Positions 10,993 through 27,412 of a stretch of DNA of 64,000 nt are shown here, one piece after another; the first letter of the stretch is position 1; every line of letters begins with the position of its first letter. A program made the translations under genes and the position numbers. Source of the stretch: a virus; IMG/VR virus record IMGVR_UViG_3300047557_004034, positions 64,001 through 128,000 of that record; one strand, given 5' to 3'. The notes beneath the pieces were generated by a model. The model was not told where the DNA came from, did not search any database, and saw only the letters and a program-made list of their open reading frames with translations.

Positions 10993-11370
10993 TTAACAAC
11001 ATGGTTCGGTCGAAATAAAGCTGTCTTGAACATTGATGTAAAGTTCTTCCCTGAGAGGTAACATCAAATTTCCTTCATCATTCTTCAAGAGGAATTGACC
11101 TTGATACCTACCAACTTGATTAGTATCTCTAGCACTAAATTGGTAATAAATATAATATTCGGGAGTTGCACCGGCAGGTAACGTTAAAGGCACTATACTA
11201 CAAGGTGCTGATACAATTTTTGCAATACCTGTTGAGGTGTTAACCATTGAAAAATAAATTGTAGACACCTCTAGACTTTCCATTATTTCAAGGTATCCAC
11301 TTCTACCATCCTTAACAACTTGCATTTTAAGAACAGGGAGGGTTGCATTTTTTTTAATAAAAAATTCCAT
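10993..11370 (-). CDS. BppU-like Ig-fold baseplate/fibre-anchor protein
   Basis: Start MEFFIKKNATLPVLKMQV; YQFSARDTNQVGRYQGQF pattern typical of BppU N-terminal-like domains; TATTTAT 4 nt upstream. Confidence 0.55.
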   Translation of the reverse strand: MEFFIKKNATLPVLKMQVVKDGRSGYLEIMESLEVSTIYFSMVNTSTGIAKIVSAPCSIVPLTLPAGATPEYYIYYQFSARDTNQVGRYQGQFLLKNDEGNLMLPLREELYINVQDSFISTEPCC

Positions 11371-11386
11371 AACAATAAATATATTG

Positions 11387-21880: not shown

Positions 21881-24800
21881 TTATAGTCCGTATTTGGATT
21901 TATCTGCATTGAAGTTTTGTAATACTTCCGAACCTGATAATGATTTACTATACATTCTCACAACACCCATTCTACCATTCAACCATTGAGAGAATTGTCC
22001 CCCGTTAAATGAACCCAAATACAAAGGTGATGTTGTGTTTTTAATGCTTGCAAATGAATGTGAATTACTTCCAATCAAATTACCGTTTATGTAAAGTGCG
22101 ATTGAATTACTTGCAACATTTGTCCACACACCTACAACTTGGTACCACGTATTGATACTCAAACCAGTAAGTGGTGATGTTACTGAGGTTACTCCTCCAT
22201 TACCTACTTCCATAAAAGTATTACTATTAGCAACTGTTCTTAAACCGTAACCCCAATCCGCAGAGGCTCCACCATCAGTTTTCGCTATTAGTATTCTGCT
22301 TGCACCCGCAATTACCGAATGATTTACCCAAAACTCAATAGACCAATCACTGCTACCTGGTTCTAATAAAGCATTGTCGGCAACACTTATTTGTGATGAC
22401 GTACCATTAAATGTAAAGTATGGAGATGTAAATGTAATGTTAGACATTGTTCCATTCAAACCATTACTTGATAAATCATTTATCACGGTTCCACTACCAG
22501 AATAACTTGAAGGGTTACTTGGGTCATAATATAACACAAGGTTACTTGTTACAGGTTGTCCTGGTGTAGAACTTGGTGTTGGTGAAGATGTTGTTGTGTT
22601 AGTTGGAGTATTAGTTGCGGTCACGGTTGGTGTTGAGGTACTTGTTGGAGTTGGTGATATTGTGTTTGTTGGTGTTATTGACGGTGTTGGTGTGATAGTG
22701 GGGGTTTCAGTATTTGTAGGTGTATTAGTTGCAGTCGGTGTCATTTCGATAAAACTTGGAGATAAGAAATCATACATTTGACCTATTTCAGAAAAATTCA
22801 ATTTTCTATTGTAAAAATATAAATTCGCCAAATATCCGAATGATTGTCCTGCCAGAAGGTTATTACCCCACATCACGTGAGTATCTCCTCCGGCTCCAAA
22901 AGCAACAGAACCAACTTGAGTTCCGTTTATGTAAAATACACTTGATGTATTATCTCCGACCACGGCATATTGTACCCAAACATCCTCATCTGCCGTAATA
23001 TTATATCCTGAATCTTGGAATGTGAAATTATAATAACCTAAATCATCAGTTCCAACTTGAACTAAGATTGGAAGATTGTTATTCGTTCTCAACAAGGACC
23101 TCCATCCAGCAGAACTTGGGATTACTTTAGCCCATGTTACATATGTATATCCTGTTGTTGGTAAGGATGGTCCTGTACCAATAACTTGAATTGACTCTGT
23201 ACCCGTACTACAATCAAAACATTTAATTCCATTAAGAGTTGTAAAAGTTGCACCTCCCGATAAAGTGTTATCAAACGAACCTGTTAAATCAAATACGGTA
23301 GTCCCTGACCCAGGGTAACTTTCAGTTTTATTAGCATCCAATTGCATAATAAGTCCTGAAGTTACGATATTAGGTGTCGGAGTTACGGTTGGGGTATTAG
23401 TTGGAGTTTCGGTTATTGTTGGTGTTATAGTTGGTGTAGGTGTTTCTGTTATTGTTGGAGTTAGAGTTGGTGTTTCACTTGGTGTGTTTGTTGGAGTTTC
23501 TGTTATCGTTGGTGTTGTTGTTGGAGTAGGTGTTTCAGTCTCAGTAGGAGTGTTAGTTGGAGTTTCGGTAGGAGTTTCAGTTACACTTGTTGTCGGTGTA
23601 TTTGTTAATGTTGGAGTTGGTGTGAGAGTTTCACTTTCTGTTGGAGTCTGTGTAGGAGTTTCAGTTGTTGTTGGTGTAGGAGATGGTGACGAGGCTTGTA
23701 TTAAAATACCAAAACCATCCTGTTGTAAAATCATAGAATAATTTTCCTGTAACAAGAAGTTGGAGTCAGGCATCGTTGGAGTTGGAGTTGGGGTATTTGT
23801 TGGTGTTTGTGTTGGAGTTACATTTGGACAAGGAATTATCGAGTCTATATAACCTGTGTTTCCAGTAACAATATAAACGTTTGTTCCATCAGAATAATAT
23901 CCATCAGTAACATAAAAATATGGGTCCAAAGAATAATCTGAGTATATATGGTCTCCTACAACTAAAGATTCACTTGGAGATTGATAATAAGTTGTAGTTG
24001 ATGCCGAACAAGAAGCATTTGGGTCTAAAAAATTATACCCTAACTGAAGAGTAGTTGGGTTATATATTGAAGGGTCAGGACAAGGTCCGACATAAGAATA
24101 ACGACCATCTCCCGATATAATTAACACGCTGTTGTAATCACCGCAAAAGTCATTACTCCAATCTTCGACTCCTGTCATTTGAATAGTGTTACCGGAACAA
24201 TCAGTAAATTCGAATGTAGGATTTTGTGGTCCAACATAAATAAAACGTATTATTGAACAAGATTCAAAAATTGTGGTGTGAGATGGTGTCACAGTTGGTG
24301 TCATAGTTGGTGTTTGAGTATTTGTTGGTGTTTGAGAAACTGGAATTAAAGTACAATCTATCAATCCTCCATTTTCATTCAATATTGCCCAATTATAAAC
24401 TATATCACCATCATAATAACTTATATCAATACCACCTATTGCAATTCTAGTATTTTGAAGTTGACCAATAAATAATACCCCTGTTGAAGAAATAATGCCA
24501 TTATCGAAAGTATTATCGAAACTACCATTCGAATTCAATCTAATTATCTTATAAGAAGATACTCCCGAATAAGAAGTGAATTGTCCTGCCGCAAGTATTT
24601 TACCATCAGTCTGTAAACCAATCGATAAAACTTGAGCATTAAATCCTGTTCCGTAGTTGAATGTGTTGTCAATTGTGGCGTCAACATTCAACCTTATAAT
24701 TCTATTTGCAGAAACACCTGAATATGTTGTAAATTGTGCACCTGCACAAATAATTTTACCATCAGGTTGTATTGCTAATTCACTGACTGTATTGTTGAAT

Positions 24801-27412
24801 CCGTTTGTTGTATTGAATGTGTTGTCGTAGCTACCGTTAGAATTAATTCTTACAATATGTTCCGCAACATTACCGTTATAATTTGTAAACGAACCTGCAA
24901 CAATCAATTTACCATCAGATTGTCGTGCAATAGAGAAAACCGAATTATCAGGTAATCCATTCAAGAATGAATTATCTAAAGTTCCATTACTGTTTAATCT
25001 ACAGAAATAATTTACAGGATTTCCATCATAATTTGAAAACTGACCACCTACTAATATTTTATCATCAGGAAGTACGAGTAACGATGTAATTGTACCATCA
25101 AATCCTGTACCTGTAATGAATGTTGCATCATAAGAACCGTTTGTATTCAATCTCACAATTCTTCCTGTTGGATTTCCGTCAAAAGAAGTGAAATTTCCAC
25201 CATAAACGAATTTACCATTGGATTGAGCTTCAAAATATGTTGGGTGTCCCCCAACAAATCCCGTACCCAAATTATAACTTGTATCTATATCTCCATTCAA
25301 GAAAAGTCTTACTAAACCTGGAGAGCTAGTACCACTAAAAGTATTGAAAGAACCTGCGACATATAGTCTATCACCATATTGGTCAATGTGGTTCACATTA
25401 CCATCGTTTGGTCCGTATTCTACACAAGCTTGAGAAGTACTTGGAGTAATAGTTACGGTAGGTGTAAATGTTGGTGTAATTGAAGTTGTTGGTGTAATTG
25501 TAGGTGTAGGTGTGACCGTTGGTGTTGGAGTAGGTGTTGCTGTTGCGGGTACTGGTGGTTCTTCACATTTTAAACAGAATGGGTCTAATAACCCGTATCT
25601 ATTTTTCAAGAGTCTGAAGTTGTGTCTAACTTGACCAGCGTTCAATGGTTCAGAATACATTCTAAATGCGCTAATATCACCAATGAAACTACCACCAAAA
25701 AACTTTTCCAAACGAATGTGAGTTGTCAAGCCCGAATATTCAGTTTCATCTAAAATTTCTGTTGTTAAACACTCAGGGTCTTGTTGATAGGTCATGCCCG
25801 TTAAAGTCACGGGACAACCTGAAAGTGTTAAGTTATCGTGTAATCCTTGTGTTCCCCCACCCAAAGAAATATTATATGCAACACCCACTTGTGTTTCACG
25901 AGCGGTGTTTAGAGGTCTTGGTATAATTTCTTCGAAGTTTTCAACAACCAAAAATAATTTACCATTGACGTAAAATCTAAAAGAACCTAATCTATCATTT
26001 TTTTCATCTACCCATCTTTCAGTGATATTAACGACTTCGACTGTCGCTGGGTCATAAGGTATTTCTTGTGTTATTGGTGGTTCAATAAGACTAACACTAT
26101 TGTGAGCTGATGACGCAGTGAATACTGTTTTGACTATTTCACCCAACCCACCTTTATAAAGTAAGTCACAATCATCCCAATAGGTATATCTTTGGAAGAC
26201 TGCATCAATCTGAACCCATCTTTCTTCTTGACTATAAGTTGTTCCTGAACAATCATCAAAAATTCCTCTTGTTGAACACCATTCAGTTACACTTGTTCCG
26301 GTAGTGTAAGTTATTCCTGTAGAACAAACTCCGGTAGTTTCACAACCACCAGTTATTCTATAAGTTTTTACACACAACCTTGGACTACCTGTATCACCAC
26401 TGAGTCTCAAAGATAAAGCATTCGAAACACCATCATATAACGGGTTTAACTCAGGGATGGATGCATATGTAGTACAATTACAAGGACAATTTCCACAGGC
26501 ACAATTCTGAGAAGTAACTCCAGATTGTTGATAAACATATCCACATGTTGATGCGGTATACCCTGTTTGAGAACAACCGCAAGTTTGTAGACAATTTAAT
26601 CCTTCTGTTACTCTTGTATAACCCGAATCAGTTATCGGTGAACCATTTGCATAATGATAAAATTTGTTTTCTGCTCTAGTTCCATAATAGAAGAAAATAC
26701 CTTTGTTGTCAGGATACCTTTCATTCAAACCTACGCTCGTATCACCTGTCCATCTGTATCTTAACATGAACTCTGATGACCAACCTAAATTAAATCTTTC
26801 AGGTAAAACTTCATAATCATAACCAAATGACTTGTAAAATCCTTGGTAAAATCCTCCGTCGAATTTTATATAATTTCCGACAGCATTTGCATCATTATCA
26901 ATTGATAAATTATATGTGTAAGAATCGTCGTTATATATTCTATCAGAAGTAGTTGTGAACCCTGTGATTGGGTGCATCTTAAATCTTCTATCGTATTTGT
27001 ATCTTGAAAATTTATCCGCAGTAGAAGTATATAATCCTGTATTTAATTCTATCGTTTCGCCTGAAAATCTTTTTACCAAACCATTATCCATCCCTGTCAG
27101 ACCAACATCACACAATTCAGTTTTTGCAGAACAAACCAACAAATCGATTCCTAAAGGGTTCCAATAATTTTCTGAAACAATTACGTCACTATCAAAGTTA
27201 CCACAATTGATACAATTAATAGTGTTTGGACTATTGATGTCAAAATTTAACGGCATCCTATTGCCGTCATCTTCACCTATTAAAAATGGTGAAAAAATAA
27301 CTTCTTCATCGTAATCACGTTCATCCGATGCCAATGAGATATCGGTAATTTCATTTAGAGGTTTAAGATATAACCTCTTGAACACATATTGATTTATATT
27401 CTGATATGACAT
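21881..27412 (-). CDS. Large mosaic virion adhesin: Cys-rich/LamG-like N-domain, Thr-Pro mucin-like linkers, delta-60-type beta-propeller, two C-terminal LamG/ConA domains
   Basis: TPTPT tracts; repeats of Q.DGK..V.G.FT...I.RLN.NGS.D.TF; LDA....SY.GSG..V.DL and W..V.......LYING...LS..E..QN LamG motifs. Confidence 0.8.

Follow-up and report, generated by a model that had tools for sequence, protein, structure and literature searches.

The subject of this work is a block of thirteen minus-strand open reading frames (ORFs) at positions 10993-27412 of a 64,000-nucleotide stretch of viral DNA (the window), which represents bases 64001-128000 of a 145,698-bp IMG/VR viral contig; all thirteen ORFs were found in place. 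Two fibre-like genes of the block are followed directly downstream by a cassette of glycosyltransferase (GT) and methyltransferase genes, an arrangement expected of phage virion glycosylation, and this cassette starts with a GT60-family enzyme and ends with an HtrL/YibB + GT-A fusion. With moderate confidence, these genes are read here as a cytoplasmic O-glycosylation system aimed at the phage's own Thr-Pro-rich (TP) linker tracts, which suggests that the phage coats parts of its virion with strain-specific sugars. An earlier note on this DNA had proposed a methyl-capped O-glycan on both of the Ser/Thr-rich fibres. As a whole that interpretation is partly supported: the GT60 initiator and the TP tracts as acceptors stand, but the collagen-like fibre is a weak acceptor, and a methyl cap would be strain-specific at most, all three methyltransferases being found in a rare variant of the cassette.

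Family and fold of the predicted initiating enzyme

The product of 18187-19461 scored 231.8 bits against the PF11397 (GlcNAc) profile, for which the cut-off is 21, and a six-frame search of the contig agreed with this assignment. The AlphaFold (AF2) model of the protein (predicted local distance difference test, pLDDT, 94.7; predicted template modelling score, pTM, 0.89) consists of a GT-A catalytic domain (approximately residues 1-327) and a beta-rich C-terminal domain (approximately 330-420), for the latter of which no match was resolved in the fold searches. When this model was used as the Foldseek query, the top ~40 matches were nearly all GT27 polypeptide N-acetylgalactosaminyltransferases (ppGalNAc-transferases), with E-values down to 6e-10, and an independent aligner, VIA-align, gave Z 21.2 over 285 residues for mouse GalNAc-T1 and Z 20.2 for Toxoplasma GalNAc-T3, against 16.4 for the next-best GT-A enzyme. 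Phmmer and profile searches of the PDB sequences found no relative of the protein. Residues D95-S96-H97, E207-E208 and H232 are invariant in 39 homologs with identities down to 35%, and the DxH motif of the family is thereby present together with the GT-A fold and with GT27 as the nearest fold. The GT60-like nature of this gene product, foreseen in the earlier note, was thus confirmed at the levels of both sequence and structure.

Characterised GT60 enzymes are polypeptide alpha-N-acetylglucosamine (GlcNAc) transferases (PMC6939170), and the phage protein is predicted to be an initiating polypeptide O-N-acetylhexosamine (HexNAc) transferase, probably one that uses alpha-GlcNAc. No transmembrane segment was found in this enzyme or in any other protein of the cassette, and no ORF with more than four transmembrane-like segments is present in the 146-kb contig or in its complete 321-kb relative. 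Because of both observations, the cassette is predicted to be soluble and not directed to the envelope.

Thr-Pro tracts accompany the GT60 gene

TP tracts were detected with a composition-window detector. The ORF directly upstream of the GT60 gene contains such a tract in 69 of 71 related loci, and all 47 loci with at least 3 kb of upstream sequence include a TP-tract ORF, eight of them together with an ORF of Gly-X-Y repeats. The effect is one-sided: 182 of 368 ORFs upstream of GT60 were flagged vs none of 703 downstream. At the same time, the genes upstream of GT60 turn over rapidly.

The association was also seen at the level of whole genomes. TPTPT-coding sites number 26 in the contig, 64 in the complete 321-kb relative, and 85, 71 and 36 in the GT60-positive phages XacN1, Xoo-sp13 and RAS14, respectively, vs 0, 0, 1, 4 and 0 in five GT60-negative genomes related by their capsids; the reversed-pattern control gave 0-4 sites in every genome. 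In cellular genomes that carry the GT60-HtrL pair, strong TP tracts occur in 6/143 ORFs flanking the module vs 4/665 other ORFs of the same loci (odds ratio 7.2, p 0.003), and the bacterial TP-tract neighbours start with twin-arginine-type signal peptides. GT60 is therefore not independent of Ser/Thr-rich genes, a dissociation that the earlier note had named as fatal to its proposal.

Candidate acceptor proteins

The best candidate acceptor is the 1843-aa protein encoded at 21881-27412, in which an N-terminal domain (residues ~1-620) is followed by TP tracts placed between DUF5122 beta-propeller, small Cys-rich and LamG domains. The five tracts (Table 1) amount to 280 residues in total. Among relatives, conservation of this protein is confined to its N-terminal ~620 residues (seen in 32-35 of 44 loci, and 68% identical in G001, a complete relative), and the remainder is swapped. 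The C-terminal LamG domain matches phrog_8510, annotated as a virion structural protein (E 5e-21), and neither a signal peptide nor a transmembrane segment was found in the protein.

The neighbouring collagen-like fibre protein (19537-21855) contains 113 Gly-X-Y triplets, in which X is Ser or Thr, Y is Ser or Asp, and proline is absent; these form blocks at residues 51-98, 222-344 and 429-596 with globular domains between them. The Gly-X-Y repeats are uninterrupted and of the PF01391 type, with a triple helix as a prediction only. The repeats that the earlier note had seen in both fibres are thus real. At the same time, only the C-terminal domain of the collagen-like protein (residues 600-772) is kept in G001, and the case for this protein as an acceptor is weak.

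Further candidate acceptors are encoded on the same contig outside the window, namely two giant Gly-X-Y proteins, one of 3072 aa and one of 1823 aa in which Ser and Thr make up 50% of the residues, a partial third one, and three more TP-tract proteins (G000:C1:2350-11568, 14085-19556, 1-1012, 12266-14107, 19586-21436 and 132513-133421).

Two conserved anchors and a hypervariable interior

The block was mapped onto 80 related loci; in IMG/VR, 570 loci with GT60 homologs were found. The GT60 gene was matched in 80/80 loci, with 81-98% identity, i.e., it is conserved to the level of the family-B DNA polymerase gene (PolB, 76/80), and the HtrL fusion and the small ORF 10993-11424 were matched in 79/80 and 77/80 loci, respectively. 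Each of the seven genes lying between GT60 and the HtrL fusion, by comparison, had a match in only 1-10 of the 80 loci. The seven intervening GT and methyltransferase genes of the window, including all three methyltransferases, are thus a rare variant of a hypervariable cassette.

The distance between the two anchors is ~1.6 kb in 61 of the 79 relatives. In the one locus of this size that was annotated (L045, from a complete relative), the two intervening ORFs encode a clear GT25 of 247 aa, the counterpart of the GT25-like gene of the window, and a 294-aa HtrL paralog; these two ORFs were also compared, as possible counterparts, with the 247-aa and GT10 genes of the window, and no match was obtained. 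Other relatives have different cassettes of 2-8 kb, which include a HAD-nucleotidyltransferase fusion, FkbM, a GT34-like-methyltransferase fusion and methyltransferase-HtrL triple fusions, and even the closest relative, with 98% GT60 identity, carries a different cassette of ten genes.

The distal anchor, the 557-aa fusion at 11387-13060, combines an HtrL/YibB domain (residues 2-255), recognised by its profile, with a GT-A domain (~290-557) bearing an acidic motif; W136-x-D138-x-G140 and E383-D384-D385 are invariant. Its bacterial ortholog has a Glycos_transf_2 match in the second half (E 6e-6). Only part of the structural model of the fusion can be relied on (overall pLDDT 67, dropping below 50 in the C-terminal third), and the model best matches enzymes with two GT-A domains, i.e., LARGE1, the chondroitin polymerase K4CP, the collagen glycosyltransferase LH3 and Mimivirus R699, with low whole-chain TM-scores (template modelling scores) of 0.17-0.26. 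The protein is predicted to be a bifunctional extending glycosyltransferase. The fusion is longer in some relatives (775-795 aa; L007:6272-8659, L012:4862-7198 and protein P0295), and P0295 carries TylF/MT24-type methyltransferase domains, which would physically tie methylation to chain extension.

Table 1 Features of the 10993-27412 block; positions refer to the window, and relatives to the 80 related loci
Feature	Size	Position	Strand	Basis
Modular fibre/adhesin-like protein	1843 aa	21881..27412	-	DUF5122 propeller x6 + Laminin_G_3 x2
TP tract 1 of the 1843-aa protein	residues 621-660	25433-25552		
TP tract 2 of the 1843-aa protein	residues 1021-1048	24269-24352		
TP tract 3 of the 1843-aa protein	residues 1198-1218	23759-23821		
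TP tract 4 of the 1843-aa protein	residues 1235-1353	23354-23710		
TP tract 5 of the 1843-aa protein	residues 1556-1627	22532-22747		
Collagen-like fibre protein	772 aa	19537..21855	-	Collagen E 1e-47; PHROG collagen-like tail fibre E 3e-48
Terminator-like hairpin		19485..19510	-	11-bp stem, 4-nt loop, T-rich tail; in the 76-nt gap between 19537-21855 and GT60
GT60-family glycosyltransferase	424 aa	18187..19461	-	PF11397 E 2e-68; phrog_24687 E 5e-162
GT25-like glycosyltransferase	234 aa	17486..18190	-	PF01755 weak, E 0.006; start overlaps GT60 stop
Putative class I S-adenosylmethionine methyltransferase	185 aa	16916..17473	-	FtsJ E 0.009, TlyA E 0.01 (weak); 3/80 relatives
Putative GT-B (GT4-like) glycosyltransferase	328 aa	15946..16932	-	Glycos_transf_1 E 3e-4, below cut-off; 2/80 relatives
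Putative GT-A glycosyltransferase	247 aa	15206..15949	-	Atlas structure matches Nucleotid_trans/GT8/GT6, TM-score 0.62-0.64
FkbM-family methyltransferase	215 aa	14552..15199	-	PF05050 E 3e-10, TIGR01444 E 9e-11; 1/80 relatives
GT10-like (fucosyltransferase-type)	286 aa	13695..14555	-	PF00852 E 4e-14; 10/80 relatives
CmcI/rhamnosyl O-methyltransferase-like	211 aa	13063..13698	-	PF04989 23.1 bits vs cut-off 23.2; NF045824 E 2e-5; 8/80 relatives
HtrL/YibB + GT-A fusion	557 aa	11387..13060	-	PF09612 E 1e-19
Small conserved ORF	143 aa from TTG (probably ~125 aa from Met19)	10993..11424	-	77/80 relatives; between cassette and PolB

The nine modifying genes of the earlier note fared unequally: GT60, GT10, FkbM and HtrL gave strong matches, but the GT25, GT4, CmcI and FtsJ assignments are weak or borderline. 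In L045, the gene next to GT60 encodes the clear GT25 (E 1e-12), to which the GT25-like protein of the window shows weak homology (E 1e-4); the latter protein likely acts in the second step. For 15206-15949, no sequence-family match was found, and the GT8/GT6 structural match serves as a lead only; the protein is weakly similar (E 9e-7) to gene 301 of Xoo-sp13. The label of a BppU-like structural gene, given earlier to 10993-11424, is barely supported, with nothing matched in Pfam, PHROGs or NCBIfam and a single weak hint from one Atlas cluster, 16% of whose members have BppU_N.

Distant phages and bacteria with the same pair of anchors

Among 50,697 deposited phage records, a full-length GT60 and a full-length HtrL fusion were found in exactly the same four phages, i.e., the Xanthomonas phages XacN1 and Xoo-sp13 and the Stenotrophomonas phages CM1 and RAS14, with 38-41% identity for the HtrL fusion. 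In all four, the pair encloses a carbamoyltransferase gene and one or two small ORFs. The window was compared with XacN1 (AP018399) ORF by ORF, and only 7 of its 60 ORFs had any match: GT60 (46% identity) and the HtrL fusion (41%) were matched over their full length, the capsid, portal and terminase proteins at 23-31%, and the PolB of the window not at all. Because the two anchors thus outscore the capsid, portal and terminase, and PolB is unmatched, the comparison points to horizontal spread of the GT60-HtrL module or to an exceptional constraint on it.

XacN1 is also the relative for which virion data exist. Purified XacN1 virions give at least two periodate-Schiff-positive glycoprotein bands, which the authors attributed to ORF328 and ORF334 (Yoshikawa et al., PMC5852040). 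According to our comparison, ORF334 is the GT60 homolog of this phage, and ORF330 is its HtrL fusion. The XacN1 TP-tract ORFs include 180, 325 and 384 as well as 350, 369, 370 and 372, the last four of which sit within the head and tail structural modules; the GT60...HtrL cassette adjoins the module of baseplate genes and giant ORFs. The XacN1 paper (PMC5852040) recognised neither the GT60 family nor its HtrL partner nor the TP tracts.

In cellular genomes, the GT60 family was found at 566 loci. An HtrL fusion adjoins GT60 in 30 of the 80 best cellular loci, which range in GC content from 29 to 71% and belong to several phyla, and the loci with the pair include megabase contigs and isolates; Tepidamorphus sp. 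3E244 and Neisseriaceae bacterium TC5R-5 are examples of culturable carriers. By its distribution, the module is older than the phage clade of the window and has moved more widely. In one of them (L128, from the Saprospiraceae metagenome-assembled genome CALJOK010000014.1), GT60 and the HtrL-GT2 fusion are 69% and 61% identical to the phage enzymes, respectively, and divergent to a TP-tract gene; the chromosomal origin of this locus is genuine, as NAD kinase, Omp85, OmpA, NIF3 and UvrB surround it. The locus, at positions 4349-11092 of that contig, also encodes a sulfotransferase, and its TP/SP-tract protein has a twin-arginine translocation (Tat)-like RRKALK signal and a C-terminal sorting domain of the type IX secretion system. 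This is a hint that glycosylation takes place in the cytoplasm ahead of Tat export, and that Bacteroidota are an exchange partner or the host phylum. The label 'Candidatus Elulimicrobium' on one GT60 homolog was rejected as host evidence, the sequence being probably a mis-binned phage contig.

Tentatively, and with somewhat less confidence than even, GT60...HtrL-GT2 can be regarded as a mobile two-anchor prokaryotic module for mucin-type O-glycosylation of TPTxT linker tracts in the cytoplasm, with a hypervariable middle that would diversify the glycan, shared by bacteria (Bacteroidota, Gemmatimonadota, Acidobacteriota and Proteobacteria) and at least two very distant lineages of jumbo phages.

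The contig, its clade and a second sugar island

The window, with a GC content of ~32%, contains genes for a T4-type major head protein, portal, large terminase, family-B DNA polymerase, helicase and PhoH. CheckV completeness of the contig is 42%, and because its complete relatives, one of them with terminal repeats, are 317-321 kb long, the 146-kb contig represents part of an uncultured jumbo phage, the genome of which measures roughly 320-350 kb. The closest cultured capsids are those of Flavobacterium and Microcystis phages, with ~43% identity across the conserved capsid domain (query residues ~350-590). The 599-aa major head protein (55178-56977, minus strand) matches known capsid proteins only at residues ~340-590; the unmatched N-terminal 340 residues may represent either an additional domain or a large propeptide.

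Megablast of the block against deposited phages gave just one 200-bp match within the collagen repeats. In metagenomes, GT60 homologs with 75-97% identity fall into hundreds of clusters at the 90% level, and the contigs that carry them reach 329 kb; because of these clusters and the 570 IMG/VR loci, the clade is considered abundant. Many IMG/VR contigs of the clade (L005-L084) stop 0.1-3 kb upstream of GT60, as one would expect of metagenome assemblies that break at the repetitive TP and Gly-X-Y genes, and the fibre genes of the clade may be under-represented in the databases.

A second, larger sugar island is located at 30039-45243 on the plus strand, opposite to the cassette. It encodes several GT2, GT4-like and GT10 enzymes, a Polysacc_synt_2 4,6-dehydratase, a nucleotidyltransferase, an epimerase and a CmcI/MT24 methyltransferase, interleaved with exonuclease, dUTPase, PhoH and nucleotidase genes. 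The ends of this island are kept in a complete relative and its middle (35002-39340) is absent there; therefore, this island, too, contains a variable cassette, and it is a possible source of unusual nucleotide sugars for the GT60 system.

Proposed mechanism and its relation to known systems

From homology and gene order, we infer the following sequence of events. The chain would begin with a HexNAc that the soluble GT60 enzyme attaches to Thr/Ser hydroxyls of the TPTxT tracts; alpha-GlcNAc is the likeliest such sugar, with UDP-GlcNAc as its donor. In the 1843-aa protein, as in several other proteins of the phage, these tracts are the spacers that keep globular domains apart. Modification may extend to the collagen-like Gly-Ser/Thr-Ser tracts. 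The GT25-type enzyme would then add the second sugar, and the HtrL + GT-A fusion would extend the chain. Finally, the strain-specific enzymes encoded between the anchors, in this phage a GT4-like, a GT-A and a GT10 enzyme and three methyltransferases, would finish the glycan. Such a glycan would stiffen the linkers, protect them from proteases and give the virion a variable sugar coat.

The closest precedents in sequence are the enzymes of CAZy family GT60, i.e., Gnt1, which acts on the hydroxyproline (Hyp) of Skp1 in Dictyostelium and Toxoplasma, and the mucin OGNT of Trypanosoma cruzi, which have PF11397, the GT-A fold and the DxH motif in common with the phage enzyme. Like Gnt1, the latter is predicted to be soluble and cytoplasmic, and like Gnt1 with PgtA, it would be followed by a two-domain bifunctional transferase, the Skp1 pathway consisting of a GT60 initiator and such an enzyme (PMC6939170). 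The candidate acceptors are Thr/Pro repeats, as in trypanosome surface glycoproteins, among which gp72 of T. cruzi has a heavily glycosylated Thr/Pro domain of the same type (PMC3630849). Unlike its eukaryotic relatives, the GT60 enzyme described here is prokaryotic/viral, is without positions 44-95 of the PF11397 profile and has an extra beta-rich C-terminal domain of ~95 residues; and whereas PgtA is a GT74 + GT2 protein, the phage partner is an HtrL + GT-A fusion. The GT27 ppGalNAc-transferases of animals and Toxoplasma are the closest solved structures (Z 20-21 over 266-285 residues) and likewise have the DxH metal motif and a catalytic domain followed by a C-terminal beta-rich domain. At the same time, sequence identity to them is only 10-15%, the phage enzyme is not a type II membrane protein, and its C-terminal domain is too small for a ricin-type lectin.

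In Gram-positive bacteria, serine-rich repeat adhesins receive their first O-GlcNAc in the cytoplasm from GtfA/GtfB, after which variable or bifunctional GTs act. By analogy only, the phage system would resemble these in having soluble enzymes for long Ser/Thr-rich repeats, an initiating HexNAc transferase and variable extension, including two-domain enzymes; it differs in the repeat, TPTxT and not SASxS, and in the phage context, and no domains of a GtfA/GtfB initiator pair or of SecA2/Y2 export were found among the scanned ORFs of the cassette and window.

Chloroviruses glycosylate their virions by means of virus-encoded GTs. In mycobacteriophages, other GT families modify C-terminal extensions of the capsid and tail-tube subunits. 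The system described here shares with such virion-glycosylation systems the phage-encoded soluble GTs near structural genes, and a glycoprotein is present in the module-bearing XacN1; unlike in mycobacteriophages, the initiator is a GT60 enzyme, TP linkers inside fibre-like proteins serve as the candidate acceptors, and two conserved anchors enclose a hypervariable cassette of extension genes. Glycosylation of virions by phage or viral enzymes is therefore already known, for mycobacteriophages from the passage of PMC12582341 that cites Freeman et al. (2023). What is new is the two-anchor/variable-cassette layout, the strict partnership of GT60 and HtrL, its spread between bacteria and distant jumbo phages, and the link to TP tracts.

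Several points weigh against the proposed glycosylation of TP tracts. Its support consists throughout of homology and gene association, the type of acceptor is not fixed by similarity of fold, and the 1843-aa protein is placed in the virion by domain matches and gene order. Since the phage loci belong to one clade, the TP-tract adjacency in 69 of 71 of them is essentially one evolutionary observation, and the contrast in TPTPT-coding sites spans only about two lineages. The stained XacN1 bands could be other than TP-tract proteins. The co-occurrence with repeat genes that the earlier note anticipated holds for the TP tracts but not for those of the collagen-like/GSSGTS type: the collagen genes do not co-vary with GT60, being near it in just 8/47 relatives and far from it in complete ones, and XacN1 is without a collagen-like repeat gene. 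Moreover, because a terminator-like hairpin lies between the collagen-like gene and GT60, the fibre genes and the enzyme genes are probably separate transcription units, so that the single minus-strand block of the earlier note keeps its ORF positions but probably comprises two units. A weak promoter-like site is located after the hairpin, at 19474-19445.

Alternative explanations

HtrL, GT25 and GT9 are typical of lipopolysaccharide (LPS) core loci, the enzymes of which are also soluble or peripheral, and this weighs against the proposed mechanism as well. The cassette and the sugar island at 30-45 kb could accordingly alter the LPS core, O-antigen or capsule of the host during infection and block superinfection by other phages. 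LPS-core transferases work without a transmembrane segment; HtrL/YibB, GT25, GT10 and the GT9 found in XacN1 are families of LPS loci, the cassette is polymorphic in the manner of O-antigen loci, and genes for nucleotide-sugar synthesis lie nearby. Such a role was proposed for the polymorphic GT clusters of jumbo cyanophages, as modifiers of host surface polysaccharides (Iyer et al. 2021, PMC7824862), and the present cassette resembles those clusters in its multiple GTs, its nucleotide-sugar genes and its polymorphism between close relatives. It differs from them in the polypeptide-type initiator that serves as a conserved anchor, in the link to TP-tract genes, which the module accompanies in phages and bacteria, and in having no component for a lipid carrier or for export: polytopic initiating transferases, flippases, polymerases and permeases encoded by the phage were found neither in the contig nor even in the complete relative, although host machinery could serve. 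Together with the presence of glycoprotein in the XacN1 virions themselves, this makes remodelling of the host surface unlikely.

There is only a small chance that the true acceptor is Hyp, with a phage prolyl 4-hydroxylase (P4H) acting on Pro residues of the TP tracts before GT60 adds GlcNAc. Gnt1, a characterised GT60 enzyme, is Hyp-specific and PhyA-dependent (PMC6939170), the TP tracts are Pro-rich, and the complete relatives have three P4H-type 2-oxoglutarate-Fe(II) oxygenases (G001:C1:28772-29065, 152970-153233 and 162023-162214). However, XacN1 has the GT60 module and TP tracts without a P4H-type gene, none is present in the 146-kb fragment, and GT60 was without a P4H neighbour in all loci examined. 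Aquatic phages commonly carry P4H-type oxygenases for unrelated reasons, and the mucin-type GT60 enzymes of T. cruzi and Dictyostelium act directly on Thr/Ser. The T. cruzi enzyme of this family has been described as a polypeptide alpha-GlcNAc transferase (PMC6939170).

A slimmer chance still can be given to modification of host proteins or of non-structural phage proteins, in takeover or regulation, the proximity to fibre genes being incidental. In its favour are the soluble, cytoplasmic nature of the enzymes, the precedent of Gnt1, whose target is a regulatory protein of the cytoplasm (PMC6939170), the location of the module beside the replication genes for PolB and helicase, and its uncoupling from the fibre genes by the terminator; but a hypervariable extension cassette of several enzymes is hard to square with a conserved regulatory target, the link to TP tracts is strong at both the genome and the neighbour level, and glycoprotein is found in purified XacN1 virions.

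It is very improbable that the cassette builds an oligosaccharide on a modified DNA base, as suggested for the jumbo-like Yersinia phage YerA41 with its several GT genes and ~1 kDa thymidine adduct (PMC9023294), even though PolB neighbours the cassette, dUTPase and nucleotidase genes are interleaved with the second island, and a ThyA-like protein, not distinguishable from an ordinary thymidylate synthase, is encoded by the complete relatives and XacN1 (none in the 42% fragment): the DNA of XacN1, a relative with the same GT60...HtrL module, is cut by BssHII, NaeI and SpeI and has in pulsed-field gel electrophoresis the size of its sequence (PMC5852040), so that refractoriness is not seen in the XacN1 literature and a bulky adduct of the YerA41 kind is argued against, the initiator is closest to polypeptide transferases, the module occurs in ordinary bacterial chromosomes beside exported TP-tract proteins, and GT60 and HtrL go unmentioned in a 2026 paper on glycosylated 5-hydroxycytosine.

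Implications

Thr-Pro linkers abound in the surface proteins of phages and bacteria, where they are usually seen as passive spacers. If a GT60-initiated system glycosylates such tracts, the eukaryotic-type mucin-like modification would gain a widespread prokaryotic and viral counterpart. If the module is indeed mobile, an abundant freshwater clade of jumbo phages would bear strain-specific glycocalyces on its fibres, the cassette diversifying the glycan strain by strain, much like O-antigen loci, and the bacterial module would glycosylate TP-tract proteins before their Tat-type export. The HtrL/YibB family and thousands of bacterial PF11397 proteins would gain a concrete, testable role. The cultured relatives XacN1, Xoo-sp13, CM1 and RAS14 make the idea testable; for XacN1, with its Schiff-positive bands, a virion proteome is publicly available as ProteomeXchange PXD008065 / jPOST JPST000339. 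Phage glycosylation affects stability, adsorption and immune recognition, and, if the proposed mechanism is true, it would be a general, strain-variable trait of an abundant jumbo-phage clade and not a mycobacteriophage curiosity.

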